The notes: a model not told the origin generated them from the sequence alone. DNA of 64,000 nt from Escherichia coli (GCF_965641715.1 NZ_OZ282453.1), one strand, 5' to 3'. Positions 2,874 through 17,170 are shown, numbered from the stretch's first letter. A program made the numbers and translations.

Positions 2874-3119
2874 CTACGTAATCAACCTGATTTGCCGAAT
2901 CCCGACCATCGGCGATGATAGCCCCCGTAATGCGTGGTCCTTATTTCCGATAAGTTTACTTGAGTCTTTAGCTTCCCATTTCAGCCCACTCTCCCCTGTG
3001 TGGGCTTTTTTCATTGGTCTGACCCGTCCTGAATAGCCAAACAATGGCAATGTTCCACTTTGCAGGGATGATAATAAGGGGATCTGATTCAGAAGAGTTT
3101 TGAAAAGTTGGACCGCCAT
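2874..3119 (-). CDS. yahM: Small uncharacterised protein YahM
   Basis: 81 aa from internal ATG of tool ORF 2874..3149; no recognisable motif; the yahN terminator hairpin lies on its antisense strand. Confidence 0.45.
   Translation of the reverse strand: MAVQLFKTLLNQIPLLSSLQSGTLPLFGYSGRVRPMKKAHTGESGLKWEAKDSSKLIGNKDHALRGLSSPMVGIRQIRLIT
2984..3011 (+). terminator. Intrinsic terminator downstream of yahN
   Basis: perfect 6-bp stem gcccac/gtgggc, 10-nt loop, then TTTTTT; about 125 nt after the yahN stop. Confidence 0.55.
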
Positions 3120-3531
3120 CGAGGCCTCGAACCCCGTACCATACAACAATCCTGGTTGTCGTCTGCTCTTCCTGATGAGCTAATGGCGGTTTTTGATATG
3201 AGCCTTACAGCATATTTTCTGTCAGGCTTGAGTGCGATGCGTAAGGTACAGAAAAGACCCCACACAAACATGATGGAATTATGATTTTTTTCATATGAAT
3301 GTCAACCCACACATTCACAAAACATCTGCATGAGATCATTTTTTATACACCGCATGGCTGCGAAACCACTACTGGTGCTTTTTTAAGCGAAGCGTCGCCG
3401 ATCACAACAAAATATCGGCGAAAAAGGCGGTGGAATGCCATTTGGCATACGGATATACAGATGAAATGATTACCTGCATTGCGATTCACTCTCTGGTGGA
3501 ATAACAACTTGCAGGTGGAACCCTTTCTGAA

Positions 3532-4347
3532 CTAAAGAGTGTAGCGGATTTTAACGTGCTTATTTACAGGATAATATCTGTCACCTAATTCCTGGACTCT
3601 ATTAGATATCCATTCATTTAATCGCGCATCATCTCTGTATGTTTTTACGTCCAGAACAGAGAGCAATAACATCACCAGTGATTCAGGAAAAACAGGGTAG
3701 ATATTTTTTAAGTGTAATAATAATCCATGCGCAAGTGCCTGCTTAATGGGCGCGTCTGTCTCCGGAATAGACGACATTTCGCGAAGCCATTTTTCCACAT
3801 GCATACACTCTTTCCCTTTAGGGAAAATTCTCAGCAAAGGCATATGGTGTTCAAGAAGAATACATTTGCAATCTGTTCGCACTGAATCGATAAACTGCAC
3901 TAATTTCTTAAGCCCGGTAAAGCGTCCAGCCTGCACGTTTGCTTTAATATCAAGAAACGCATCATCCTGGTCATATACCCAAACTGTCCCTTTTTGATTT
4001 TCAAGTATGCGAAAAACAAACTTAACCGGGTGATCAGGGTAATCCATCCAGTCATAAAATCCAGGGAAATCATTAAACTGCACATTTATGGTGAGTGCGT
4101 TATCGTCTGACCACTCACAGTCTCGTACGGCAGCCATGAGATGAATGAGTTTGTCGTCATCGACTAAATCATCACGACAATCATAAGGATAATCATAATA
4201 TTGTTTAATCAAAACCTTGAATATATCGACACAGGAAACCAGGGAGCTTTTGATATCCTCTGGTAACTGATTGTTTTTAACCGTATTAAGTATGCTTTGT
4301 TGCGTATATGGCATCAAATTATTGTGCGGAGCTTTTAATGATATCAT
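3532..4347 (-). CDS. yahL: Uncharacterised protein YahL
   Basis: 271-aa ORF with AT-rich codon usage; no recognised motif; position matches K-12 yahL. Confidence 0.7.
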   Translation of the reverse strand: MISLKAPHNNLMPYTQQSILNTVKNNQLPEDIKSSLVSCVDIFKVLIKQYYDYPYDCRDDLVDDDKLIHLMAAVRDCEWSDDNALTINVQFNDFPGFYDWMDYPDHPVKFVFRILENQKGTVWVYDQDDAFLDIKANVQAGRFTGLKKLVQFIDSVRTDCKCILLEHHMPLLRIFPKGKECMHVEKWLREMSSIPETDAPIKQALAHGLLLHLKNIYPVFPESLVMLLLSVLDVKTYRDDARLNEWISNRVQELGDRYYPVNKHVKIRYTL

Positions 4348-4589
4348 CGCGATCTCTCTTAAATAAAAATAAACGTCGCAGATAATAAAGCTCTGATTAA
4401 ACCAGGCACTATCAGAAATCGCTCATAACTAACGTGTGAAGTATTGTGTACTGGAGGGAGTTAATTTAACAATTTGAATTTACGTTATAGGTTTTACTGC
4501 TACTTTGATATTATTTCGCTCTCCTTAACTAAAAAGTTAAGTGGAGAGCGAAGTTAATATGTTAAACCACAGGGTATTTATTAATTTTT

Positions 4590-5639
4590 TCAGTCTGTTA
4601 GTGTGCGATTATCGATAACAAAACGATATTTCACATCACCACGCAGCATTCGCTCATAGGCTTCATTAATTTGATCGGCCCGAATCATCTCTATATCAGC
4701 CACGATGCCATGTTCGGCGCAAAAATCGAGCATCTCCTGAGTTTCTGGAATGCCGCCAATCATAGAACCGGCTATCGCACGGCGTTTCATGATCAGGTTG
4801 AAAACTTCCGGCGATTTATGCGGTGTCGCAGGCGCACCAACCAGCGTCATGGTACCATCACGCTTCAGCAAGGTGGTAAAATCGTCGAGATTATGTGGCG
4901 CAGCTACTGTATTCAAAATGAAATCGAAACTCTTCAGATGAGCCGCCATCTCATCGGCATTGCGTGAGTTAACAACTTCATCGGCCCCCAGGGCTTTTGC
5001 CGCTTCGCGTTTTGCCTCAGAAGTGGTAAATGCCACCACATGTGCCCCCATCGCGTGGGCCAGCTTAATCCCCATATGTCCCAGACCGCCGATGCCGACC
5101 ACGCCCACTTTTTTACCCGGCCCGGCCTGCCAGTGACGTAGCGGCGAATACGTGGTGATCCCTGCACACAACAAAGGAGCCACCGCCGCCAGCTGCTCTT
5201 GCGGGTGACGAATACGCAGAACATATCGCTCATGAACGACGATCTGTTGTGAGTAGCCGCCCAGCGTATGGCCCGGTTCGTCCGGCGTCGGCGAGTTATA
5301 GGTGCCGGTCATGTGATCACAGTAGTTTTCCAGCCCGTCTTCACACTCTTCGCAATGTTTACAACTGTCGACAATGCAGCCGACACCGACCAGATCGCCC
5401 AGCGCATGTTTTTCTACCTGATCACCAACGGCTACCACACGCCCCACAATTTCATGACCCGGCACGCAGGGGTAAACCGTCCCCGCCCACTCGGAACGGA
5501 CCTGGTGGAGATCGGAATGGCAGACGCCACAGTAAGCGATTTCGATTTTGACATCATTCGGTCCCGGTTCACGCCGGGTGATATCCATCGGTTCAAGTGG
5601 TTGTTTAGCGGAATATGCACCAACAGCTTTGATCTTCAT
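4590..5639 (-). CDS. yahK: Zn-dependent NADPH aldehyde reductase (cinnamyl-alcohol dehydrogenase family)
   Basis: 349 aa; Zn ligand motifs GHEIVG and CxxCxxC (CKHCEEC); Rossmann motif GVVGIGGLGH. Confidence 0.9.
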   Translation of the reverse strand: MKIKAVGAYSAKQPLEPMDITRREPGPNDVKIEIAYCGVCHSDLHQVRSEWAGTVYPCVPGHEIVGRVVAVGDQVEKHALGDLVGVGCIVDSCKHCEECEDGLENYCDHMTGTYNSPTPDEPGHTLGGYSQQIVVHERYVLRIRHPQEQLAAVAPLLCAGITTYSPLRHWQAGPGKKVGVVGIGGLGHMGIKLAHAMGAHVVAFTTSEAKREAAKALGADEVVNSRNADEMAAHLKSFDFILNTVAAPHNLDDFTTLLKRDGTMTLVGAPATPHKSPEVFNLIMKRRAIAGSMIGGIPETQEMLDFCAEHGIVADIEMIRADQINEAYERMLRGDVKYRFVIDNRTLTD

Positions 5640-6015
5640 TGTGTTTACTCCTGATTAGCTATGTGTATTTGGCGACGCCTGATATGTCATCGCGGCAAAA
5701 CGCGTCCATTGAATATAGCCAATATTTAAACCACCCGATCCAGCCCCAACATGCCGCGAGCCTGAATGAAACAGAGCAGCAACGTTCCCCATAAGGCGAG
5801 CGCCTATAAGTGTGATATTTGCTATCCGTAAAAGACTAAAATCGGCAAAACTGATGATCTTTTCACGTAGACAAATAGTTATCTACACAACGTCAATAAG
5901 GGCATATTCCTCAAAGATAATGTCCATTTCTGCCGACACACTCATATTCAGATTGCCCCACTCCCTGGGGCTTAAATCTCTTACTATTCACCGTTGCAGG
6001 CGTTTCAAATGCGCA

Positions 6016-7398
6016 TCAACCTGCCACACTCCCCCACACCAGTTGCCCTTTATGGAACGTTGCGGTTCTCGGCGAGATACGCGCCACCGCCTCGGCGGAA
6101 CAGGAGGCGTCCACCAGCACAAAGCTGGCGTCATCCTGCGCTTTTGGCCATACACGCTCGCCTTTTTCATTCAGCGGCAATACATCGCCAGTGGCTAAAA
6201 ACAGCGAACGGGAGAGGTTCTGTTCGTTAGGACGAATATAGAGCTGCGCGTAGAGATTGGCTTTTTCCAGCATGTCGCCCAGACCATAAGGCGACCAGTG
6301 GTCGATAACGCTGTCAGTGCCAGTCATCACTTTTACGCCTTTGTCGTGCAACTGTTTGAGCGGCATATGCAGCGTGCCAATCGGCACTGTCGAGGCGATA
6401 GAAATTTGCTGCACCGCCATCCGGTGCGCCAGTTCATCTACCTGTTGTTCGTTGAGCGTTGCCAGCGCAAAGGCGTGGCTGATGGTCAGCTTGCCCTTCA
6501 GCTGTGGCGTTTTCTCTACCGTTTCAACCATATAATTGATGGCCGCCACGCCTGCCGGAGTGGTTTCGTGCAGGTGAATATCGACGCCTTTGTCGTAGTC
6601 CAGCGCAATCTGGAACATGGTGTCGAGGGATTTTTCCATCGCGCCATCAACACTGGTCGGGTCCAGGCCGCCGACGTAATGCGCCCCCGCCTGCATCGCT
6701 TCACGCATCAAAGGTTCAGATTTCGACAGCAGCAAACCGTGCTGCGGGAAGGCGACGATTTCACACTCAAAGCCCGCCTGACGTCGCGCCAGCACCGCCT
6801 GCAAATTTTGCAGATTTTTCAGGCCGGAAACCGGTTCGATATTGCAGTGGCTGCGGGCAATGGTGGTGCCTTTCGACTGCAATAAATCAATCAGTTTTTC
6901 TGCCCGCTCCTGAGTGTACGGTTGCAGCTCCGGCAGCATTTTCTGCTCGAGTTTGATCATGTCCTGGATGGTGGTGCCTGCCGGACGATTGAGCGAGCGC
7001 CACGGCCCGCCGTAGAAGGTTTTGTCGAGATGAATATGCATGTCGCGGGTGGTGGGCAGCATCAGCTTACCGCCAGCGTCATAGTGCGGCAGCGTGGCGT
7101 CCGGATGCTGCTTGTTCTCGCGCAGGGCGACAATTTTGCCGTCCTGAATCTCCACGGTCTGGCGCGCCGTGCGGGTCTGCACCGCCACACCATTTTCGTA
7201 GTCAAAACCGGTTTCCAGCAGCACGTTGTCGAGATAGTAATGCGGGTCAGTGATTTTCATGGTGTTGTTCGCTTCGCAGTTTAGGGTGCCAGCTACCGCC
7301 GCATGGGCGAGCGGCACAGAGGTACCAAACAGCGCGGCGGCGGTGACCATCTTACCGCTCTGGCTCAAAAACTCACGGCGGCTATTGTTTTCTTTCAT
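6016..7398 (-). CDS. yahJ: Amidohydrolase-superfamily deaminase with twin-arginine signal
   Basis: 460 aa; N-terminal SRREFLS Tat motif followed by hydrophobic stretch and AHA; metal-dependent amidohydrolase-like body. Confidence 0.85.
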   Translation of the reverse strand: MKENNSRREFLSQSGKMVTAAALFGTSVPLAHAAVAGTLNCEANNTMKITDPHYYLDNVLLETGFDYENGVAVQTRTARQTVEIQDGKIVALRENKQHPDATLPHYDAGGKLMLPTTRDMHIHLDKTFYGGPWRSLNRPAGTTIQDMIKLEQKMLPELQPYTQERAEKLIDLLQSKGTTIARSHCNIEPVSGLKNLQNLQAVLARRQAGFECEIVAFPQHGLLLSKSEPLMREAMQAGAHYVGGLDPTSVDGAMEKSLDTMFQIALDYDKGVDIHLHETTPAGVAAINYMVETVEKTPQLKGKLTISHAFALATLNEQQVDELAHRMAVQQISIASTVPIGTLHMPLKQLHDKGVKVMTGTDSVIDHWSPYGLGDMLEKANLYAQLYIRPNEQNLSRSLFLATGDVLPLNEKGERVWPKAQDDASFVLVDASCSAEAVARISPRTATFHKGQLVWGSVAG

Positions 7399-7407
7399 CT
7401 TACGTCC

Positions 7408-8358
7408 TTACGTTTTAATAATGTGGGTGCCCGTTTCACCGCGCAGCGCCGCTGGCAGGCATTCCGGCGTGGTGATAATCACTTCTTTACCGCCCTGTTC
7501 CAGGAACGTCAGGCTGGCGATGATTTTTGGCAACATGCTGCCGGGCGGGAAATGTCCTTCCTGCATATAGCGAGTCATGGTGGCAATATCCACCCGATCC
7601 AGCGCCTGCTGCTCGGGTTTGCCAAAATGAATACACACTTTTTCCACCCCGGTGGTGATCACCAGAATGTCGGCGTGAATTTCACGGGCCAGCAGCGCGG
7701 TAGAGAGATCTTTGTCGATAACCGCGTCCACGCTTTGGTAATCCCCCGCTTCAGTACGCACTACCGGAATTCCACCGCCGCCCGCGCCAATTACGACAAA
7801 ACCTTGTTGGATCAGCGCTTTAATGGCAGGTGCTTCGACAATACGTTTCGGTTCCGGCGAGGCGACCACGCGGCGATAGCCCCGCCCGGCATCTTCAACA
7901 AAACACCAGTCAGGGTTTGCCTTTTGTAATTCGTCACGCTGGCTTTCACTGAAGAATGCGCCGATGGGCTTGGTGGGATGGGCAAAACCTGGATCGTTTT
8001 TATCCACTTCCACCTGAGTCACCACGGTGACGGCTTTCTTCTCGCCGTGACGCGCCAGCCGGTTATTCAGCGCCTGTTGGATCAGATAGCCGATGCCGCC
8101 TTGCGTATCTGCCACACAGTTCGCCAGCGGCGTTAAGGGCAGCCCTTCGCGCTCGTGGGCAATCTCCGCACGGCGTAAATCCAGCCCGACCTGCGGCCCG
8201 TTACCGTGGGTCAGCACAATGTCGTAATCGGAAGCCAGCATTTCCAGCACCGTATCGGCGACGGCTTTCACCGCCTCCGCCTGATGCTCAATCGACTGGC
8301 TGGCGTTATCTTTGATAATGCTGTTGCCACCAATGGCAACGACCACAAGCTCTTTCAT
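7408..8358 (-). CDS. yahI: Carbamate kinase-like protein
   Basis: 316 aa; amino-acid kinase fold with N-terminal VVVAIGGNSI motif, matches remembered YahI. Confidence 0.85.
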   Translation of the reverse strand: MKELVVVAIGGNSIIKDNASQSIEHQAEAVKAVADTVLEMLASDYDIVLTHGNGPQVGLDLRRAEIAHEREGLPLTPLANCVADTQGGIGYLIQQALNNRLARHGEKKAVTVVTQVEVDKNDPGFAHPTKPIGAFFSESQRDELQKANPDWCFVEDAGRGYRRVVASPEPKRIVEAPAIKALIQQGFVVIGAGGGGIPVVRTEAGDYQSVDAVIDKDLSTALLAREIHADILVITTGVEKVCIHFGKPEQQALDRVDIATMTRYMQEGHFPPGSMLPKIIASLTFLEQGGKEVIITTPECLPAALRGETGTHIIKT

Positions 8359-8408
8359 GTTGTTATGTCCGCTACAGAGGGTGATGGGGTTATGACCAAC
8401 GCCAGACT

Positions 8409-8953
8409 GCCTGATGCGCTACGCTTATCAGGCCTACAAATTCTCGTGCCACTCGTGGGCCGGATAAGGCGTTCACGCCGCATCCGGCAATGGTGACAAA
8501 TGCCTGATGCGCTACGCTTATCAGGCCTACAAATTCTCGTGCCATTCGTGGGCCGGATAAGGCGTTCACGCCGCATCCGGCAATGGTGACAAATGCCTGA
8601 TGCGCTACGCTTATCAGGCCTACAAATTCTCGTGCCATTCGTGGGCCGGATAAGGCGTTCACGCCGCATCCGGCAATGGTGACAAATGCCTGATGCGCTA
8701 CGCTTATCAGGCCTACAAATTCTTGCGCCACTTGTAGGCCGGATAAGGCGTTCACGCCGCATCCGGCAATGGTGACAAATGCCTGATGCGCTACGCTTAT
8801 CAGGCCTACAAATTCTTGCGCCACTTGTAGGCCGGATAAGGCGTTCACGCCGCATCCGGCAATGGTGACAAATGCCTGATGCGCTACGCTTATCAGGCCT
8901 ACAGATTCTTGCGCCATTCGTAGGCCGGATAAGGCGTTCACGCCGCATCCGGC
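8409..8953. repeat. Tandem REP/BIME array, about six copies of a 93-bp unit
   Basis: unit starts at 8409, 8502, 8595, 8688, 8781 and 8874; each unit carries two imperfect palindromes; copies differ at a few positions. Confidence 0.9.
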
Positions 8954-8966
8954 ATGAACATGTAGG

Positions 8967-10385
8967 TCAGACGCCGTAACGTTCGCACCAGCCAAGAATG
9001 GCTTTCTCGAAGCAGGCAAAAGGTGGATGCACAATGCCCGCGCCAATCATGCCGACGCCCGCATCTTTATGGGCGATGGCGGTGTTGATCACTGGCAGAA
9101 TGCCGCTGCTACCCACGCGGGTGATGTCGATTGCCGACGGCACGCCCATAAAACCAAGCAGCGGAATGGTGACGTTGGGGTTTTCGCCAAGGGTGATTTC
9201 GCGCATCTGACGGGAGAAATCGATAGCCTCTTCCACCGTGCCACCCACCAGCGCGACGATTGCAGGCGCGGTCGCCATGGCAAATCCGCCAATACCGTAG
9301 GTTTCGGTGATGGCACTGTCGCCGATATCCAGCCCCGAATCTTCCGGCTTATAACCGGCAAACATCGGGCCGATCACCTGCTGCGCTGGGCCGGTAAACC
9401 ACTGCCCCGGCAGGCCGCTGACCCGCAGGCCGAACTCGACGCCGTTACGCGCCATGGTGGTAACGACGGTGCTGTATTCGATGCCGTGCGCCGCATCCAT
9501 CGCCGCTTTACACATCGCCATCCACGTCGGGCCGGAGAAGTAATCGCTACTGGCAACAAACTCAAACACTTCGCGCTGTTGCGCGACGGAATAGCCCGCC
9601 TGGATAATCCCCGGCGTCAGCGCCTGAATCAGCAGCGTCGTCCCGGCGTTATTGCGGTTATGGCACTCATCGCCCATATGCAGCGCCTGCGCCAGCATTA
9701 AGCGCAGATCGATTTCGCCGATAATTTTCATCGCATCGCGCAGTATTGGTCCCTGCACATCACGCATCCAGTTCAGGCGGTCAATCACGCTCTGGTCGTT
9801 AGCGCCCATACGCAAAATCTTCGCCATCTGCTCGCTCATGTTGGTATAAGCGATGTTGCCGTAGGTTTTGTTTTTTACGATGTGCATAAACATCGAGGCC
9901 GAGGTAACACCCGCCATCGATCCCACGCAGTCGTGCTCGTGACACGGCGAGAAGGTGATCTCCCCGGAAGCCGCCAGTTCAGCCGCCTCGTCGAGATCTT
10001 TCGCCAGTCCTTCGAACACCAGCGCTCCGGTGACCGCGCCTTTCATCGCGCCGCACATTTTTTCCCAGGTGATCGGCGGCCCGGCGTGAAGAATGGTTTT
10101 CGGCGTCATGCCCGGCACCACGTTAATCGCCTGATCAAAACCAATCAGCACCGGATGCGACTGGATAATGCGCTCCAGCGCCTGCTGGTTAGCGGCGGCG
10201 ATTTTGTCTGCCAGCGGCGAATCGGCAATGTTATCCAGCGCCTGCACCACCTGCATATTGCCCTGCCCCGGCGGCGTCCAGTCGAGTTGAGTCACTTCTA
10301 CATGCTGCTTTTTAAGAAAATCGCTAAACATGGCGATGCCGACGTTAATAACGTTCAATGGTTGGCTAAACAGTGACTGGCTCAT
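8967..10385 (-). CDS. yahG: DUF1116-family protein, YlbE-like
   Basis: 472-aa ORF, matches remembered YahG; 1-nt overlap with yahF. Confidence 0.8.
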   Translation of the reverse strand: MSQSLFSQPLNVINVGIAMFSDFLKKQHVEVTQLDWTPPGQGNMQVVQALDNIADSPLADKIAAANQQALERIIQSHPVLIGFDQAINVVPGMTPKTILHAGPPITWEKMCGAMKGAVTGALVFEGLAKDLDEAAELAASGEITFSPCHEHDCVGSMAGVTSASMFMHIVKNKTYGNIAYTNMSEQMAKILRMGANDQSVIDRLNWMRDVQGPILRDAMKIIGEIDLRLMLAQALHMGDECHNRNNAGTTLLIQALTPGIIQAGYSVAQQREVFEFVASSDYFSGPTWMAMCKAAMDAAHGIEYSTVVTTMARNGVEFGLRVSGLPGQWFTGPAQQVIGPMFAGYKPEDSGLDIGDSAITETYGIGGFAMATAPAIVALVGGTVEEAIDFSRQMREITLGENPNVTIPLLGFMGVPSAIDITRVGSSGILPVINTAIAHKDAGVGMIGAGIVHPPFACFEKAILGWCERYGV

Positions 10386-11932
10386 CAGGCTTCCTCCCCT
10401 TTGCAGATAAATTCACGCGCCAGCAATCCGGTATTGGTGCTGCTGCTCGCCAGAATCACTCCGGCATCAAGCAGCATCTGGCTTTGTTGTTCTAACGATG
10501 GCGTATCAAGATCGGTACCCAGCACATAGGCGAGAATGATCAACTCTCGTCCTTCGGCAGCGGCGATCGCTTTCGCTTCTTTGATCGCCTCGATGGTGGA
10601 GCCGACCGGATCTTCATGCGATCCAAATCCGAGCACAAAATCCATCACGATCACCGCCACTTCTGGATCGCGCGCCTCTTCGAGCAAGCGACTGATGCGG
10701 TTGGTGGGGTCAATCATTGGATGCGGCTTGCCGTTGGTGAAGTCGTCATCGCCAAAGTCGAGGAAGGTGTGTTTGATGCTGCGGTTGATATCTTTCAGGC
10801 GGAATTCCGGATCGGGCTGAATGTTGCTGTAGACATCGCCATGTTTTTCCATCACCGCGAACATGGTTTCGTCGCACAACGTGCCGCCGCAGAACAGGCC
10901 ACGAATGTATTTCTGCTGCGGTTGCAGACGCGCACGCACATCCGCAATCAACGGCTGGTTCAGGGTATGCAGGTCGAGATGTTCTTGTTTCACGCCGGAG
11001 AGCATCACCGCTTTTAGCGCCGCTTCTTTGCTGCCGCGGGCAAACTGTAGCCCCTGCTCATCCACTGGCGTTTCGCCACGACCGAGGAAGCAGACCACCA
11101 CCGGCTTGCGGCAGGCGCGCGCACGTTCCAGCACTTTGCGGGCCACCGCAGGCGCAGGCGGTTTGGAGATCAGCGCAATGATTTCAGTTTGCGGATCGTT
11201 TTCCAGCATCCCGATGGCATCGAGCATCATCAGGCCGCCGATTTTCTCGCTCAGGTCGCGCCCGCCGGTGCCAATCAGTTGCGAAACGCCACCGCCAAAT
11301 TCATGAATGCGGACGCTCAACTCCTGGCTGCCGGTGCCGGATGCGCCAACAATACCGATGTTGCCGCGACGCACGGCGTTACCAAAACAGAGCGACGCGC
11401 CGTTGATAATCGCCGTGCCACAGTCTGGCCCCATCATCAGCAGCCCTTTTTCGTGGGCCAGTTGCTTGAGCGCCAGTTCATCTTCAACTGAGACGTTATC
11501 GGAAAACAGCATCACGTTGAGATCGTTTTGCAGCGCCTGACGCGCTTCGCGAGCGGCAAACAGACCGTTGACCGAAATCACCGCCAGGTTACTTTCCGGG
11601 ATATGCTTTTTGGCGCTGGCAATAGTGGCGTAACGCGCCTCGTGCGAGCCGCTTTGCGCTTTGGTGTTGAACAGTTCTTCAATCTCCACCAGCAACTGCT
11701 CGTTGTCCGCCCCCGATTTACCATTGATGACAATCATCAGGTCGCCGTTTTTCGCCTGCTCCAGCTCCGGCGTCAGCAGTCCTAAATTTTTCAGCACACC
11801 TTTGTTCATTTCGGTCGCCATCGCCACAAATGCCTGCTCGACGCCGTCGAGTTTATTTGCACGCGTGGAGATAGACATCAGCGAGACAGAATCAAAATAG
11901 GTATTCGGTTTAATGACTATTTTAACTGACAT
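10385..11932 (-). CDS. yahF: FdrA-like protein with succinyl-CoA synthetase alpha-type fold
   Basis: 515 aa; CoA-binding/ligase-like glycine-rich segments (GIVGASGTG); matches remembered YahF. Confidence 0.8.
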   Translation of the reverse strand: MSVKIVIKPNTYFDSVSLMSISTRANKLDGVEQAFVAMATEMNKGVLKNLGLLTPELEQAKNGDLMIVINGKSGADNEQLLVEIEELFNTKAQSGSHEARYATIASAKKHIPESNLAVISVNGLFAAREARQALQNDLNVMLFSDNVSVEDELALKQLAHEKGLLMMGPDCGTAIINGASLCFGNAVRRGNIGIVGASGTGSQELSVRIHEFGGGVSQLIGTGGRDLSEKIGGLMMLDAIGMLENDPQTEIIALISKPPAPAVARKVLERARACRKPVVVCFLGRGETPVDEQGLQFARGSKEAALKAVMLSGVKQEHLDLHTLNQPLIADVRARLQPQQKYIRGLFCGGTLCDETMFAVMEKHGDVYSNIQPDPEFRLKDINRSIKHTFLDFGDDDFTNGKPHPMIDPTNRISRLLEEARDPEVAVIVMDFVLGFGSHEDPVGSTIEAIKEAKAIAAAEGRELIILAYVLGTDLDTPSLEQQSQMLLDAGVILASSSTNTGLLAREFICKGEEA

Positions 11933-12785
11933 AATTCCCTCCGTAGGTTTGGCTCAGCGCACAACCATCGGCCATGCCATACAGCATGTCGCAGCCGGAA
12001 CTGGAGCCAATATGTTTAATTTTTTCTATTGCCTGAGTTGCGTTCCCAGGGATGTCATAAATAATGTTGTGAATAAAACGATGAATATTTTCCCGGCAGC
12101 GTTGTTGTAATGCGGCTTCCAGCGTTATGGCACTTAATAACGTGGTATTATTTCTGCCGCGTTGCAAGCCGAGATAAAATTCCTCTTTGTATTTTCCCGC
12201 CGGATGCCCGGAAATAAATAAAATAAGTGCCAGACCTGTTAAATAATCATCGGCTAATGGCGTAAGGCCAATCCCTAAGCCCATCATACTGGCGACCGCT
12301 GAGGCGATATTTTGTTTATCGTTTACTGTCTGAATAACTGCCCGTCGTTTAATATGTAATTCTTTATTTAACGCCTGATAAAACGGATTATCGCCGCGAT
12401 AATTAAACAGGGTTTCATTTTCCCCCAGGTGCTGATGAATAATGTCGTGCCACTGTTGCCAGGCGATAAGGTGAAAATTCACAGCGGTCATTTGCAAGGT
12501 TGGGGACAGCCAACGCCGACAACGACTCATCTCTATATGAAGATGTTGACCAACCGTAATACCTTGATCGTCAAACTGAACCTTATCACCATGCCGGAAC
12601 AGATCATCAAAGTGAGTGAGTGCCAACCGACAACTGTTTGGCGCATTGTCGTACTCTTCACAAAGCAGCGTCAGCAACTGCTGGCGAGCCGGGAGTGCGA
12701 TATTTACCGCTCTGGCAAAGACCTGTTCAACCTGTCCTTGCCCCCGCTGCGCCAGAAAATCCGCATCCGCAGTTAGCGCCCACAC
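11922..12785 (-). CDS. yahE: DUF2877-family protein, YlbF-like
   Basis: 287-aa ORF overlapping yahF start by 11 nt (translational coupling). Confidence 0.75.
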   Translation of the reverse strand: MWALTADADFLAQRGQGQVEQVFARAVNIALPARQQLLTLLCEEYDNAPNSCRLALTHFDDLFRHGDKVQFDDQGITVGQHLHIEMSRCRRWLSPTLQMTAVNFHLIAWQQWHDIIHQHLGENETLFNYRGDNPFYQALNKELHIKRRAVIQTVNDKQNIASAVASMMGLGIGLTPLADDYLTGLALILFISGHPAGKYKEEFYLGLQRGRNNTTLLSAITLEAALQQRCRENIHRFIHNIIYDIPGNATQAIEKIKHIGSSSGCDMLYGMADGCALSQTYGGNYVS

Positions 12786-12824
12786 ACACCGTTTTTCTGG
12801 TGTGTTGATAGCAAGCCTCCCGGT

Positions 12825-13430
12825 TTATGCACCTGCGGCAATCAGTAACTGCGCAATCTCTTCAAAGCCCCGTTCTCGCGCCAGTTCCAGTGGCGTTTTG
12901 CCATATTTATCGGTCAGATGCGGGCTGGCACCGTGTTCCAGCAATAACTGCACAATCGCCTGCTGTTTAATACCACCATCATTAAGCACAATCGCTTCCA
13001 GTAGCGGCGTCCAGCCTACATGGTTGGTCTGGTTAACGTTAATCTCCGTATACGCCAAAAGCTCTTTTACAATACTTAAATGGCCTTTTTCACAGGCAGG
13101 CGTCAGGCCGACACCGCCAAAACGGGTTACGCAATTAAGATCGGGTTTAGCCGGTAAAATAATTCGTAGTAGCGTTAAATCATCGTTCAGACAGCTAATT
13201 AAAAAAGGATTTAAACAGGTATGATCTTGTTTATTAATATCCGCTCCGGCGTCAATTAATGCCTGAACGCAAGCATATTGCTGATATAAACTTGCCAGCG
13301 TAATTGCCGTTTTCCCCTGACGGTCGCAGGTATTAATATCGACACCCAGCGCAAGGCAGTTTTTTACTTTATCGATATCACCCTGTTGTGCAGCCAATAA
13401 ATAGTCGGCAGGTAGATTTTTTATACTCAT
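12825..13430 (-). CDS. yahD: Ankyrin-repeat protein
   Basis: 201 aa with repeated ankyrin-like G-TPL/ALxxG..LL motifs. Confidence 0.8.
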   Translation of the reverse strand: MSIKNLPADYLLAAQQGDIDKVKNCLALGVDINTCDRQGKTAITLASLYQQYACVQALIDAGADINKQDHTCLNPFLISCLNDDLTLLRIILPAKPDLNCVTRFGGVGLTPACEKGHLSIVKELLAYTEINVNQTNHVGWTPLLEAIVLNDGGIKQQAIVQLLLEHGASPHLTDKYGKTPLELARERGFEEIAQLLIAAGA

Positions 13431-13687
13431 TCACATTCCCCTGGTTTTTGTGGCTGTTTTCGATGAATTGAGAATAGCAACGATAATCTGATAAAAGAAC
13501 CCGCTTAAATTTAATTCGCCGTATTTCGCCTTTTTGTTGAATGATGTTCAACAATCTTTTCGCAGTGTGCGGTAGTGCAATATTTGTTTCTTTGACCCGA
13601 TACCCTTTCACTCAATCAGGTTTTATTTCTCTATAGTCTGCACATGTAAGAGTAGCTTTCGTCCATGTCTAACCAGAGGGGAACAAG

Positions 13688-14185
13688 ATGAACGGACTCA
13701 CGGCAACGGGTGTCACCGTCGGTATTTGTGCAGGGCTTTGGCAGTTAGTGTCTTCACATGTCGGGCTCTCTCAGGGATGGGAATTATTAGGAACGACAGG
13801 CTTCGTCGCCTTTTGCAGTTTTTATGCCGCAGGCGGCGGTAAATCGGGGTTTATCAGAAGTCTGGCGGTTAATTATTCCGGGATGGTGTGGGCGTTTTTC
13901 GCCGCGCTGACTGCCGGTTGGCTGGCCACTGTAAGTGGACTGTCCGCGTTCTGGGCGAGCGTAATTACTACCGTACCCTTCTCGGCGGTGGTGGTCTGGC
14001 AAGGGCGTTTCTGGTTACTGTCATTTATTCCCGGTGGCTTTCTCGGCATGACGCTGTTTTTTGCCAGCGGGATGAACTGGACGGTGACGTTACTGGGTTT
14101 TCTGGCGGGTAACTGCGTGGGGATAATTTCAGAATATGGTGGACAAAAATTAAGCGAAGCGACGACTAAACGCGACGGGTATTAA
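13688..14185 (+). CDS. yahC: Small inner-membrane protein
   Basis: 165 aa, about four hydrophobic helices; divergent from yahD. Confidence 0.75.
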   Translation: MNGLTATGVTVGICAGLWQLVSSHVGLSQGWELLGTTGFVAFCSFYAAGGGKSGFIRSLAVNYSGMVWAFFAALTAGWLATVSGLSAFWASVITTVPFSAVVVWQGRFWLLSFIPGGFLGMTLFFASGMNWTVTLLGFLAGNCVGIISEYGGQKLSEATTKRDGY

Positions 14186-14276
14186 AAGTTATTCAAAAAT
14201 GATTATCTATCTTTAACCGATACCTCTACAGTCATAGCTGGAGAAATTCATAGTAGATAATGGCGAGAATGGTTTA

Positions 14277-15209
14277 ATGAACTCAATTTTTACCGAAGAG
14301 AATCTGTTGGCATTTACTACCGCTGCGCGTTTTGGCAGCTTCAGTAAAGCCGCAGAAGAGTTGGGTTTAACCACTTCCGCCATTAGCTACACCATCAAGC
14401 GTATGGAGACGGGGCTGGATGTGGTGCTGTTCACTCGCAGTACCCGCAGCATTGAGTTAACGGAGTCCGGGCGTTATTTTTTCCGCAAAGCTACCGACCT
14501 GCTGAATGATTTTTATGCCATCAAACGTAGCATAGATACTATTTCGCAGGGCATAGAAGCGCGTGTGCGCATTTGTATTAATCAGCTGCTTTATACGCCC
14601 AAACACACCGCGCGCTTATTACAGGTGCTGAAAAAGCAGTTTCCTACCTGCCAGATTACCGTGACGACCGAAGTGTATAACGGCGTCTGGGATGCGATTA
14701 TTAATAATCAGGCCAATATCGCCATCGGCGCACCCGATACACTACTGGACGGCGGCGGTATTGATTACACTGAAATTGGCGCGATTCGCTGGGCTTTTGC
14801 TATCGCCCCGGATCACCCGTTAGCCTTTGTGCCGGAACCCATCGCCGAAAGCCAACTGCGTCTCTACCCTAATATTATGGTGGAGGACACCGCGCATACG
14901 ATTAATAAAAAAGTGGGCTGGTTGCTGCACGGGCAGGAGTCGATTCTGGTGCCAGATTTCAACACCAAATGTCAGTGCCAGATTTTAGGTGAAGGGATTG
15001 GTTTTTTGCCGGATTACATGGTCCGTGAGGCGATGACGCAATCCCTGCTGGTTACCCGACAAATCCATAATCCGCGCCAGGATTCGCGCATGTTACTGGC
15101 GACTCAGCATTCTGCTACGGGTCAGGTGACGCAGTGGATTAAAAAACAATTTGCGCCAAATGGCATATTAACGGGGATCTATCAGGATTTACTGCATCGG
15201 GAGAATTAA
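14277..15209 (+). CDS. yahB: LysR-family transcriptional regulator
   Basis: 310 aa; N-terminal HTH (FTTAARFGSFSKAAEELGLTTSAISYTIKRME) and LysR substrate-binding domain. Confidence 0.85.
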   Translation: MNSIFTEENLLAFTTAARFGSFSKAAEELGLTTSAISYTIKRMETGLDVVLFTRSTRSIELTESGRYFFRKATDLLNDFYAIKRSIDTISQGIEARVRICINQLLYTPKHTARLLQVLKKQFPTCQITVTTEVYNGVWDAIINNQANIAIGAPDTLLDGGGIDYTEIGAIRWAFAIAPDHPLAFVPEPIAESQLRLYPNIMVEDTAHTINKKVGWLLHGQESILVPDFNTKCQCQILGEGIGFLPDYMVREAMTQSLLVTRQIHNPRQDSRMLLATQHSATGQVTQWIKKQFAPNGILTGIYQDLLHREN

Positions 15210-15250
15210 TCGCTGCCAACCTCCCGATGCGCTGTGAATAGCGGTTTACA

Positions 15251-16339
15251 TCAACCACCTGCTTTCATTACCCATTCAGAGATAAATTTATTACCCGGAA
15301 CTGGCGGGGAGTACAAATAGCCCTGCAAAAAGTGAACGCCTTTACCGATCATTAAATCCGCCTGCTCCTGGGTTTCTACCCCTTCCGCTACGATACTCAG
15401 ACCAGGCTTACGCGCCAGTTCGACAATATTGTCCACAATATGACCGGAGATTTCGTCGACACTCGCCATTTGCACAAACGACTTGTCAATTTTAATAAAA
15501 TCGACCGGAAACGCCTGCAGATAACGATAGGTCGCATAACCCGTACCAAAGTCATCCAGCGCAAAGGTAATGTTGTGCTGATGAAGGCTGTCAAATATCG
15601 CTCTGGCTTCTGGCGTTACCGGAATAGGGTTACGTTCCGTTAGCTCGAGAACCAGTTTGATTTTATCGTTTCCTAATTTCTTGACCAGGTTCAGGCATTC
15701 TTTTTCAAATCCCGCGGCCAAAAAACAACCCGCCGAGACGTTGATACCAATATGGAAATTATCCGGCAGCAAATGTTTTACCGGCATCAGAATATCCGCA
15801 GTCTGTTTCATCAGTTGGCGGGTCATTATGACAATAAGACCGGATGACTCCGCCAGAGGAATAAACTGATCCGGTGGGATAATTCCCGTTTGTGGATGTT
15901 CCCAGCGGACAAGCACTTCACAGCCCGTCAGTACCCCAGTCTGCGCGCAGAAAACCGGTTGGATCCACGGTTTGAATTCGTGGTTTTCCAACGCCAGACT
16001 GATGGCTTCAGGCGTGACGATATGGTGATAGTGATTATCATTAATATATCTATGACTATTACTACCCGTGGCGGATATGATCTCCGGATTGTACTGAAAG
16101 AAAATATCGCGCCAGAAAGTAATATCGCTCTGAATCCCCAGTTTCTCAAAGAGCTGTTTCTTTTGATGTGAAATTGTCTTTGCACTGCGATTTCTGTACT
16201 GTGATATTTCTGTTACAGACATTCCCTGCATCAGCAGCTTGAGTAGCAGTCGTTCTTTCTCGGATACGCTACCAGGCAATGACAAATGAACCGTTGTACC
16301 GAACTCTTGCAGAAAAACACGAAAATCACATGAATTCAT
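15251..16339 (-). CDS. pdeL: c-di-GMP phosphodiesterase PdeL (LuxR-type HTH plus EAL domain)
   Basis: 362 aa from ATG at 16339 (tool ORF starts 2 codons upstream at GTG); EAL-domain motifs; N-terminal LuxR HTH. Confidence 0.9.
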   Translation of the reverse strand: MNSCDFRVFLQEFGTTVHLSLPGSVSEKERLLLKLLMQGMSVTEISQYRNRSAKTISHQKKQLFEKLGIQSDITFWRDIFFQYNPEIISATGSNSHRYINDNHYHHIVTPEAISLALENHEFKPWIQPVFCAQTGVLTGCEVLVRWEHPQTGIIPPDQFIPLAESSGLIVIMTRQLMKQTADILMPVKHLLPDNFHIGINVSAGCFLAAGFEKECLNLVKKLGNDKIKLVLELTERNPIPVTPEARAIFDSLHQHNITFALDDFGTGYATYRYLQAFPVDFIKIDKSFVQMASVDEISGHIVDNIVELARKPGLSIVAEGVETQEQADLMIGKGVHFLQGYLYSPPVPGNKFISEWVMKAGG

Positions 16340-17170
16340 GAACACACCTTTTATCTTTTATCGCTGTTCAGTATGAGTGATTACCTGTGGATTCCTGAGC
16401 ACACATAAGGGGTAACCATAAACATTAGCGATGCCATACGTATAACATCCCACATCACTATCAAGAAGATTATCTTTACCTCTGATGCTCGCTCAAAAAC
16501 AGTTACGCTAAATACCTTAAAAAGGTAATCACAAGTCAAACTCAGGAGATAATCACGCAAGAATGCAATATTAAAATTCAGATACTCATTTTTGGTAATA
16601 AAGAAGTAGTTGGACTATTTCGATATTTATAATTTCCCACTACGTATTGATGCCCACTCATGAGTAAAGGCGCATTATATGAATTTAACAATCCAGATCA
16701 ACTGAAAATACCTCAACCTCATAAACACATAGCGTCAACATTCAATGACATAATGAGTAAAGATGTTGGTTATGCATACACGTCATTACTCTATGCCTAT
16801 CCCTTAACAACCTGCCTTTTAAGACTGAATCCATTCAGCAATAGATAGCCAACATTATAACAATGACAATAAAAACAATATTTAAAACAATCAATAAAAT
16901 ATCAGACACAGACAATTAAACCTTAAACAACAAACGGTCACATTGATTTTAGTTGATTTGCGCTACGCGTTCCCATGAATAAAGCGTCATTTCAAATTAG
17001 CACCAATATTTACATTAAATAAGACTAAGCTTATTGAACATTCACAACAGTCCAAACGTAGGTTTTGGGCTTCAATAGTTCTTTTCTTTTTTATTATCTG
17101 TTGCCTGGCAATCATCAATCGATACTAAGGGCTTAACCGTACAGATATAACGTATCAAGAGGTAAGAGAA

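Follow-up and report, generated by a model that had tools for sequence, protein, structure and literature searches.

What compound do the clustered yahD, yahE, yahF, yahG, yahI, and yahJ genes of Escherichia coli serve to break down? We addressed this question on a 64,000-nucleotide stretch of E. coli DNA (GCF_965641715.1, NZ_OZ282453.1), termed the window, in which the genes span positions 6016 to 13430; coordinates refer to this whole stretch, and the yah genes are numbered on its given strand. An earlier reading of the sequence alone, called here the original prediction, described six packed same-strand genes resembling a cryptic carbamoyl-transfer module, with a divergent membrane protein gene (yahC) and a LysR regulator gene (yahB). 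We found all six genes intact on the minus strand and reproduced their coordinates; the spacings given for them were exact (overlaps of 11 nt for yahE/yahF and 1 nt for yahF/yahG, and a gap of 9 nt for yahI/yahJ), and yahC and yahB are both on the plus strand, opposite yahD-J. The gene names are those of near-identical E. coli loci in the RefSeq annotation. We propose, with a probability of about one in two, that the yah genes encode a second AllFGH-type carbamoyltransferase, which would act on a distinct ureide fed by a deamination.

We compared the Yah proteins directly with the proteins of the K-12 allantoin cluster. YahF is 39% identical to AllF (E value, 7e-103), YahG 45% to AllG (2e-119), YahE 24% to AllH (2e-9), YahI 38% to AllK, also called YbcF (1e-56), and YahB 39% to AllS (9e-73), the last match being absent from the original prediction. 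Family models agreed with these pairings. In Pfam, YahG falls with AllG in PF06545 (1.4e-88), YahE with AllH in PF11392 (4.9e-27), and YahF shows CoA_binding and Ligase_CoA domains. YahF also scores 492.5 bits against the NCBIfam FdrA model NF004760 (cut-off, 433) and matches the FdrA structure 3DMY in the PDB (4.8e-83), and YahI scores 650 bits against the carbamate kinase model NF009007 (cut-off, 266). These results, which include profile hidden Markov model (HMM) matches and establish significant homology of YahF, YahG, and YahE to the FdrA, YlbE, and YlbF families, bear out the predicted likenesses of YahF to FdrA, of YahG to YlbE, and of YahE to YlbF, the carbamate kinase nature of YahI, and the parallel drawn with fdrA-ylbE-ylbF-ybcF (24 to 45% identity). 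All three subunit types of an AllFGH-type cluster (AllF/FdrA-like, AllG, and AllH) are encoded in the window, and the carbamate kinase gene lies on the same strand downstream of yahG, with a repeat array in between. Membership in the AllG, AllH, and FdrA families was already recorded in RefSeq and Pfam; the anatomy and distribution of the locus and the predictions made from them are new.

The allantoin counterpart has a defined function, as purified AllF-AllG-AllH was shown in 2024 to be the oxamic transcarbamylase (PMC11326118), which made it known as a novel carbamoyltransferase class, and AllK is a catabolic carbamate kinase (PMC9843812). The parallel with an oxamate carbamoyltransferase thus stands, and only the word "proposed", used of that activity in the original prediction, is outdated. 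The yah genes are not mentioned in the AllFGH and AllK papers. In a 2024 survey of the y-ome, yahC, -E, -G, -H, -I, and -J figure together as a cluster still uncharacterized (PMC11551758), and our literature searches on yahD-J, on DUF1116/DUF2877, on FdrA with ankyrin, and on twin-arginine translocation (Tat) with YahJ returned no functional study and no substrate.

The AllFGH-AllK-AllS system of the E. coli allantoin regulon (Kim & Kim 2022, 2024, 2025) and the yah system are one-to-one paralogues for the three subunits, the kinase, and the LysR activator, belong to the same Pfam families, and share translational coupling of their genes. Yet they differ in gene order (E-F-G in yah, F-G-H in all) and in a 57-residue N-terminal extension of YahG with respect to AllG, and only the yah system has an ankyrin protein, a Tat signal-bearing amidohydrolase, and a dedicated permease family. 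No allD or other allantoin gene was linked in the yah-type neighborhoods examined, and the locus has neither AllF, AllG, and AllH as its closest relatives nor the linkage to allantoin genes that would mark an AllFGH orthologue. On sequence grounds, it qualifies for the AllFGH family but is not an orthologue of AllFGH.

We then scanned one genome per species, which yielded 475 YahG relatives, and kept the best 80 of the 475 loci for synteny analysis. YahG is 86 to 99% identical within Enterobacterales, 75 to 79% in Janthinobacterium, Azospirillum, Brevibacillus, Paenibacillus, and Psychrobacillus, ∼70% to the Enterococcus faecalis structure 3CLQ, and 65% in Trichococcus; the yah-type YahG proteins have mutual identities of 65 to 99% across Proteobacteria and Firmicutes. 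A search of 1.84 billion representatives clustered at 50% identity gave 3330 matches to YahG (E value, ≤0.001), among which a single full-length representative exceeded 49% identity, all others, including AllG, being at or below 49%. Because of this identity gap, sequence comparison defines the yah type as an orthogroup of its own, rather than a duplication peculiar to E. coli. The orthogroup is separate from AllFGH, much more strongly conserved, and did not replace allFGH in K-12. YahG is the most constrained protein of the module, and horizontal transfer may contribute to its high identity across phyla.

A distinct substrate for the yah cluster is plausible from these comparisons, and the retention of both the yah and all sets in E. 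coli supports it. The same kinship allows another view, in which YahEFG would be a second oxamate carbamoyltransferase acting on oxalurate itself, obtained from a source other than allantoin (imported, or formed from parabanic acid) and under other expression conditions. The three Pfam families and the kinase partner are indeed the same, and E. faecalis carries a yah-type H-F-G cluster (its G protein being the one ∼70% identical to YahG), in a species for which an oxamate transcarbamylase induced by oxalurate and parabanate is described in references 78 and 79 of PMC6022934; the yah-type genes would be candidates for that enzyme. Minimal modules composed of LysR, ankyrin, F, G, permease X, and kinase genes would also suffice if the import were that of a ready carbamoyl donor. 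However, deletion of allF or allG in K-12 leads to zero oxamate with yahEFG intact (PMC11326118), which may reflect only a lack of induction; moreover, the identity gap between the yah type and the other AllG proteins is clean, both sets reside in one genome, and oxalurate would leave the recurrent deaminases and nucleobase-type permeases unexplained. We consider a second oxalurate enzyme somewhat unlikely.

We then analyzed the putative enzyme subunits. Natural single-chain proteins of ∼1000 residues (P0369, P0373, and others, from metagenomes) fuse an FdrA-like N-terminal half to an AllG-like C-terminal half, and such fusions support the view that F and G act as one enzyme. YahE behaves differently from its neighbors, with a ratio of nonsynonymous to synonymous substitution rates (dN/dS) of 0.20 versus 0.02 to 0.09, and its identity drops to only ∼50% between enterobacterial genera whose YahG proteins are ∼90% identical. 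The idea that this fast divergence is specific to Escherichia was rejected since YahE evolves fast in all lineages. In 25 informative species loci, from Enterobacter, Leclercia, Lelliottia, Silvania, Huaxiibacter, a Serratia, and Aeromonas cavernicola, an HMM built from YahE orthologues detected no such open reading frame (ORF) within 10 kb, although D, F, G, X, I, J, and B are all retained there. This absence agrees with the published 7% of wild-type oxamate still produced by allFG without allH (PMC11326118), the AllH-type subunit being partly dispensable in both systems. By these sequence criteria, YahE is a fast-evolving, weakly constrained accessory.

YahF aligned by profile with the alpha subunit of succinyl-CoA synthetase over SucD residues 65 to 241 (probability, 97.9%). 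This alignment, the CoA_binding and Ligase_CoA domains, and the RefSeq product name "acyl-CoA synthetase FdrA" would suit a YahF that functions as an acyl-CoA synthetase, in a cluster that activates an organic acid and in which the kinase and amidohydrolase are independent. But AllF, the homologue of YahF, was purified as part of a transcarbamylase and is not a CoA ligase (PMC11326118), the SucD alignment stops just short of the loop with the catalytic His246, and CoA chemistry does not account for the linkage to carbamate kinase across phyla, so we regard an acyl-CoA synthetase as hardly credible. Our search for the phosphohistidine of succinyl-CoA synthetase in YahF gave nothing firm; beyond the end of the alignment, YahF continues with LQFARGS, and a motif GDDxFTxG(K/R)PHPMIDP, located further on, is invariant in YahF and AllF. 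As for YahG, the AllG-type gene of an E. faecalis contig (our locus L089, 9751 to 11155) is called as two ORFs of 77 and 384 aa, and the 421-residue chain of 3CLQ aligns from YahG residue 58. In E. faecalis, the N-terminal extension of ∼57 residues may be separate or unused.

Among the best 80 loci, a conserved module, yahB facing yahD-E-F-G-(X)-yahI-J, was found across Enterobacterales and Aeromonas, X being a membrane protein gene described below. YahD gave ankyrin matches, and its gene is present in almost all yah-type loci, its counterpart being an ankyrin-TPR fusion in some Bacillales, Trichococcus, and Azospirillum. We found no ankyrin gene in the K-12 all cluster; YahD is thus a hallmark of the yah type.

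Across phyla, the yah-type genes are repeatedly accompanied by genes for an ankyrin protein, a nucleobase-type permease, and a deaminase and, in most loci of several phyla, by a carbamate kinase gene. In the following gene orders, a slash sets the regulator apart from the other genes. Janthinobacterium (L083) has ankyrin-H-F-G-X-kinase-LysR and Shimwellia (L093) LysR/ankyrin-F-G-X-kinase. Brevibacillus (L084) and Paenibacillus (L086) have H-F-G-NCS1 permease-kinase-small deaminase of the cytidine deaminase (CDA) fold, L084 having in addition a divergent PucR gene and an ankyrin gene. Sporosarcina (L087) and Psychrobacillus (L088) have PucR/H-F-G-ankyrin/TPR fusion, followed by an NCS1 permease and a CDA deaminase, with a kinase and X also in L088. 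The order in Trichococcus (L090) is PucR/two YahJ-family amidohydrolases-ankyrin/TPR-H-F-G-membrane protein-triple RidA protein, and that in E. faecalis (L089) is PucR/H-F-G-membrane protein. Among family models, the NCS1 carrier matches allantoin permease best, but its 434 bits fall short of the cut-off of 620. The CDA-fold deaminase of Bacillales is closest to the guanine deaminase of Bacillus subtilis (1WKQ; 1.5e-31), and the two Trichococcus amidohydrolases, which have no signal peptide, score above the cut-off of NF005312, the YahJ family model, and are 36% identical to YahJ. Two unrelated deaminase folds (the YahJ family in Enterobacterales and Trichococcus, the CDA enzyme in Bacillales) thus take the same place in the cluster, which speaks for hydrolytic deamination of an amino-N-heterocycle as a real, if optional, first step. 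The 422-residue protein encoded two genes downstream of F-G in Trichococcus collinsii (L090, 12971 to 14239) contains three RidA domains (enamine/imine deaminase, RutC-like) and hints at the release of an enamine or imine product.

YahJ scores 716 bits against NF005312, which is named only "amidohydrolase" (cut-off, 447), and falls far below the cut-offs of the cytosine deaminase equivalog NF005759 (70 bits versus 403) and of the subfamilies NF005748 and NF006685 (103 and 83 bits versus 438 and 483). Pfam assigns it Amidohydro_3/1, its HxH metal motif reads DMHIHLD, and its closest solved relatives are the AtzC-like protein 6NBO (5e-44), AtzC (2QT3), and CodA. YahJ therefore shares an amidohydrolase-superfamily branch with AtzC (N-isopropylammelide aminohydrolase) and the CodA of codBA (cytosine permease and deaminase), but it differs from them by its linkage to a carbamoyl-transfer operon and, in these alignments, by a Tat signal, its first ∼75 to 105 residues lying outside every match. 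Its N terminus, MKENNSRREFLSQSGKMVTAAALFGTSVPLAHA, combines SRREFL (pattern S/T-R-R-x-F-L), a hydrophobic stretch (the h-region), and AHA (the A-x-A cleavage site), and not one of 75 YahJ orthologues has lost the RR-x-F-[LI] motif. YahJ was listed among predicted Tat substrates of unknown function, and a yahJ mutant had a mild competitive defect in mice, with a competitive index of 0.70 (PMC7549933). YahJ is thus predicted to be Tat-exported and periplasmic in Gram-negative bacteria, so the deamination would take place outside the cytoplasm and its product would need import. The original prediction had the carbamoyl-transfer set joined by YahJ and YahD; both genes are present, but a periplasmic YahJ would not be a simple addition to a group of cytoplasmic proteins.

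We then looked into how such a product might enter the cell. X is a membrane protein of 512 to 530 residues, encoded between yahG and yahI in 58 of the best 80 species loci, with identities of 84 to 95% within Enterobacterales and 69 to 81% in Janthinobacterium, Azospirillum, and Psychrobacillus. It had no sequence match in Pfam, NCBIfam, or the PDB. Its AlphaFold model was poor (mean predicted local distance difference test score, pLDDT, of 55, from 12 near-identical sequences), and all Foldseek matches of this low-confidence model were to the 7+7 UraA fold (SLC26/BicA, UraA, SVCT1, UapA, and AZG2; E value, ∼1e-4; template modeling [TM] score, ∼0.4), from which we retained the fold class only. 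Homologues of X are named xanthine permease or AGZA-family permease in public sources, one with PF00860 on record. Among the same 80 loci, 58 have X only, 17 have yahC only, and none has both. The loci with yahC belong to Escherichia, Kluyvera, Raoultella, some Klebsiella, Pseudocitrobacter, and Citrobacter amalonaticus. X is probably ancestral because it is present in several phyla, and the Escherichia arrangement looks like a replacement of X by YahC, a DUF1097 protein according to RefSeq with no NCBIfam match, which may be a transporter. We also considered YahC, X, and a 394-aa membrane protein of Lactobacillales as one diverged transporter family, which was rejected for lack of detectable mutual similarity.

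In the window, the slot of X is occupied by a tandem array of repetitive extragenic palindromic (REP) sequences forming a bacterial interspersed mosaic element (BIME), a feature absent from the original prediction. Loss of X to this array might have left the Escherichia module a disabled, silent remnant, its enzymes without access to a substrate. Such a fate would fit with the decades of K-12 work from which no function emerged, with a yahF gene split in the draft genome of the Escherichia albertii type strain, and with the acquisition of a separate, X-containing module by 142 of 5426 complete E. coli genomes. The selection data speak against it. Compared with E. albertii and Escherichia whittamii, which share the X-less arrangement, dN/dS was 0.02 to 0.05 for yahI, -G, -F, -J, and -B and 0.07 to 0.09 for yahD and yahC (0.07 to 0.08 for yahC), i.e., 0.02 to 0.09 for seven genes after the loss of X. 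All yah genes are under purifying selection and the locus is not decaying, so that "cryptic", the term of the original prediction, should not be taken to mean decay. This selection, the synteny in 80 species loci, and the wide presence in E. coli also show that the genes are more than fortuitous ORFs. At least 80% of the yah stretch is covered in 4982 of the 5426 genomes (best identity, 98.1%), the motifs upstream of yahD are conserved, and the X-less arrangement, which always comes with yahC in 17 species loci from several genera, resembles a replacement. We therefore judge a disabled remnant to be improbable.

From the homologies, gene sets, signal peptide, and conservation described above, we infer how a second, distinct carbamoyltransferase might work. 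Its core would be composed of YahF and YahG, with YahE as an AllH-like accessory and YahD as a type-specific ankyrin partner, and it would be coupled to YahI. YahJ, in the periplasm via Tat, would deaminate an amino or imino precursor to the oxo form, freeing a first NH3, and import of the oxo compound would fall to the AzgA-like permease X in most genera and, in Escherichia, to YahC or a carrier encoded elsewhere. A ureide (R-NH-CO-NH2, probably an acyl-urea) would then react with phosphate to yield R-NH2 and carbamoyl phosphate, from which YahI would form ATP, NH3, and CO2 with ADP. By analogy with succinyl-CoA synthetase, this phosphorolysis might correspond to the half-reaction in which an acyl phosphate is formed, except that an amide would leave in place of CoA. 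The substrate would not be the oxalurate derived from allantoin but another ureide, either imported or originating from a purine-like or nucleobase-like N-heterocycle. The nucleobase-type carriers, the guanine deaminase-like and AtzC/CodA-like deaminases, and the PucR- and AllS/PunR-like regulators all point to a purine-like or otherwise nucleobase-like compound, or to an acyl-urea formed by its breakdown, and away from allantoin-derived oxalurate.

Several observations weigh against this proposal. The mild defect of the yahJ mutant (PMC7549933) is the only phenotype that we found for any Yah protein. No ring-opening enzyme is encoded, and the ring of a heterocyclic substrate would have to be opened by an enzyme encoded elsewhere, by spontaneous hydrolysis, or by YahFG in a novel activity. 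Permease X is absent from the window, and YahJ and the cytoplasmic enzymes are predicted to be in different compartments. Deaminase genes are lacking in several loci (Janthinobacterium, Shimwellia, and a plasmid-borne module presented below), so that deamination is optional. Lastly, according to classical work cited in PMC6022934, an oxamate transcarbamylase inducible by oxalurate was reported in E. faecalis, a bearer of a yah-type cluster, which favors oxalurate as the substrate.

We then analyzed the control of the operon. The best NCBIfam matches of YahB are AllS (267 bits; cut-off, 372) and PunR (238 bits; cut-off, 345), both below cut-off; by sequence, YahB is a LysR-family paralogue of AllS and not AllS. 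The regulators of yah-type loci are either AllS/PunR-like LysR proteins or PucR-family proteins, and yahB is directly divergent from yahD in every locus devoid of yahC, a placement of regulator and target that is usual for LysR regulators. When the sequences preceding yahD in ten genera, Escherichia to Providencia, were aligned, four conserved islands stood out against an otherwise diverged background (Table 1). One is a perfect inverted repeat, TTGTTGAA-N5-TTCAACAA, which contains the T-N11-A core and is a candidate YahB site, from which the AllS-like YahB would switch on the operon. The others are TGCACTACCGCAC, GAATTAAATTTAAGCGG, and the -10-like TTGCTATTCT, and assignments of any of these motifs to a factor are likewise conjectural. 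A sigma-54/NtrC pattern, sought by eye in the upstream motifs, was rejected because the spacing is unfit, and we make no claim from the likeness of GAATTAAATTTAAG to an ArcA box. A generic scan for sigma-70 promoters and terminators gave fewer matches than shuffled controls and none on the coding (minus) strand, and we claim no promoter.

Table 1. Genes and noncoding features of the yah locus, with positions in the window
Feature	Positions	Strand	Description	Basis
yahJ	6016-7398	minus	Tat-signal amidohydrolase, metal-dependent, AtzC/cytosine deaminase branch	
yahI	7408-8358	minus	Carbamate kinase paralogue	
REP/BIME tandem array	8408-8954	none	93-nt unit, 5.9 copies, 98% matches; in the yahG-yahI spacer	
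yahG	8967-10385	minus	AllG-family (DUF1116) subunit	
yahF	10385-11932	minus	FdrA/AllF-like subunit, succinyl-CoA-synthetase-alpha-like	
yahE	11922-12785	minus	AllH-family (DUF2877) subunit; GTG start	
yahD	12825-13430	minus	Ankyrin-repeat protein; first gene of the operon	
Divergent control region	13431-13687	none	Between yahD and yahC	
Island TTGCTATTCT	13471-13480		-10-like	Ten-genus alignment
Island GAATTAAATTTAAGCGG	13501-13517		Conserved island	Ten-genus alignment
Inverted repeat TTGTTGAA-N5-TTCAACAA	13534-13554		Perfect repeat with T-N11-A core; candidate YahB site	Alignment and inverted-repeat search
Island TGCACTACCGCAC	13567-13579		Conserved island	Ten-genus alignment
yahC	13688-14185	plus	Small DUF1097 membrane protein	
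yahB	14277-15209	plus	LysR-type regulator, AllS paralogue	

The yahG-yahI spacer, which holds the BIME array, measures 608 bp in the window and 421 bp in K-12, the window containing two more 93-nt units. The array yields two minus-strand ORFs of 197 aa (8355 to 8948) and 218 aa (8390 to 9046), the translations of which both consist of six repeats of a 31-residue unit; these ORFs are a phantom "yahH", an artefact of the array. Best identities to the 5426 complete E. coli genomes were 98.0 to 98.1% for positions 6016 to 41000 and 99.1% for 41000 to 64000, a part with the ecp fimbriae and the paoC region that is covered to at least 80% in only 900 genomes. The adjacent yahK gene is intact in the window (349-aa ORF, 4590 to 5639) and annotated as frameshifted in the closest strain, PD4 (L001, 4576 to 5624). 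We had considered the aldehyde reductase YahK as a member of the pathway, but it was rejected because it is not syntenic outside Escherichia.

The locus also bears traces of exchange. Synonymous divergence (dS) from E. albertii, calculated over positions 6016 to 16345, was 0.17 to 0.34 for yahD-J and 0.69, 0.77, and 1.20 for the adjacent yahC, yahB, and pdeL, respectively; the low values would fit an exchange of the operon among Escherichia species that had already diverged. In the draft genome of E. albertii NBRC 107761 (L006, 5616 to 7169), yahF is split into ORFs of 216 and 283 aa and represents either a pseudogene or a sequencing error. Pseudocitrobacter (L004 and L007) is a mosaic in which YahF, -G, -I, and -J are 96 to 99% identical and YahC, -D, and -E 55 to 75% identical to those of the window, which suggests that a recent recombination or transfer had its breakpoint between yahE and yahF.

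Yah-type modules are found on plasmids as well. At the DNA level, the Citrobacter X gene had homologues in the 142 E. coli genomes mentioned above, at 106 plasmid and 46 chromosomal places. The IncFII plasmid p24A16CRGN010_A (L095; NZ_JBVWEU010000002.1, 3107 to 11540) carries LysR/ankyrin-AllH-FdrA-AllG-X-carbamate kinase, without yahJ and flanked by remnants of IS1, IS3, ISL3, and IS100. In PLSDB, 86 plasmid records match, 70 of them at ≥99% identity, and 78 are predicted to be conjugative; among the records listed, many are from chicken, duck, or other avian sources. The proteins of the plasmid module are 88 to 96% identical to those of the Citrobacter freundii group and 52 to 93% identical to those of the window. 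Since the plasmid module is closer to the C. freundii group than to the window, some E. coli strains carry two yah-type modules. A bolder version of our proposal, which we regard as speculative and quite unlikely, sees the yah-type module (ankyrin, FdrA-like, and AllG-like proteins, an AllH-like subunit in some cases, an AzgA-like permease, and carbamate kinase) as a self-contained, horizontally mobile machine that would import a purine-derived N-heterocycle (e.g., a product of urate or guanine oxidation such as parabanate or an s-triazine) and convert it directly into carbamoyl phosphate and ATP without a separate ring-opening hydrolase and with the ankyrin protein as an obligatory subunit. 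If true, the module would be a new ATP-yielding route of nucleobase fermentation, selected in uric-acid-rich guts, and such selection would explain its spread on conjugative plasmids, many of which come from poultry isolates.

The pathway that we propose resembles other known systems to various extents. Arginine and agmatine deiminase (ADI-type) pathways, which combine a deiminase, a catabolic OTCase or PTCase, a carbamate kinase, and an antiporter, match the inferred yah logic of a deaminase, a catabolic carbamoyltransferase, a carbamate kinase, and a transporter; they convert an amidine or guanidine into a ureide, which undergoes phosphorolysis to carbamoyl phosphate, with ATP then formed by carbamate kinase, and we infer the same order for yah. 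However, NCBIfam and Pfam searches with the Yah proteins found no protein of the aspartate or ornithine transcarbamylase (ATCase/OTCase) fold, unlike in ADI-type pathways, and only the kinase is homologous. The yah deaminase belongs to the amidohydrolase superfamily or the CDA fold and is predicted to be periplasmic in Enterobacterales, whereas the ADI enzyme modifies guanidino groups.

There is also a third, more distant E. coli paralogue set, in the tkt1 island of avian pathogenic E. coli (APEC) O1 and "GR 29" of strain BEN2908, with an isochorismatase-like hydrolase, yahE/F/G-like genes, a carbamate kinase, and a CodB-like permease (PMC3349570, PMC12928451), and in nitrifiers allFGHK genes adjoin biuret and triuret hydrolases (PMC12625717). 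These sets share with yah the F/G(/H) and kinase platform and a nucleobase-type permease, but their feeder is a RutB/BiuH-like cysteine hydrolase instead of a YahJ-type deaminase, their listed genes include none for an ankyrin protein, and YahG shares only 46% identity with the GR 29 protein of DUF1116. The anaerobic uric acid cluster of E. coli encodes the carbamoyltransferase YgeW and the carbamate kinase YqeA (PMC12507026), another purine-linked catabolic pair in the same genome, with YgeW having a classical transcarbamylase fold and no sequence relationship to YahEFG.

The yah genes are one of the densest blocks left in the E. coli y-ome. Our results narrow the search for candidate substrates to nucleobase-like compounds and acyl-ureas, and they provide several experimental handles, namely YahB with the conserved operator, the permease X that E. 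coli is missing, the predicted periplasmic deaminase, and the dispensable AllH-like subunit. They also caution against calling each FdrA/DUF1116/DUF2877 trio an oxalurate enzyme, a practice already found in metagenome studies. The existence of a separate orthogroup, present across phyla and mobile on plasmids, implies that gut and soil bacteria ferment at least one further ureide or N-heterocycle, gaining ATP and releasing ammonia.

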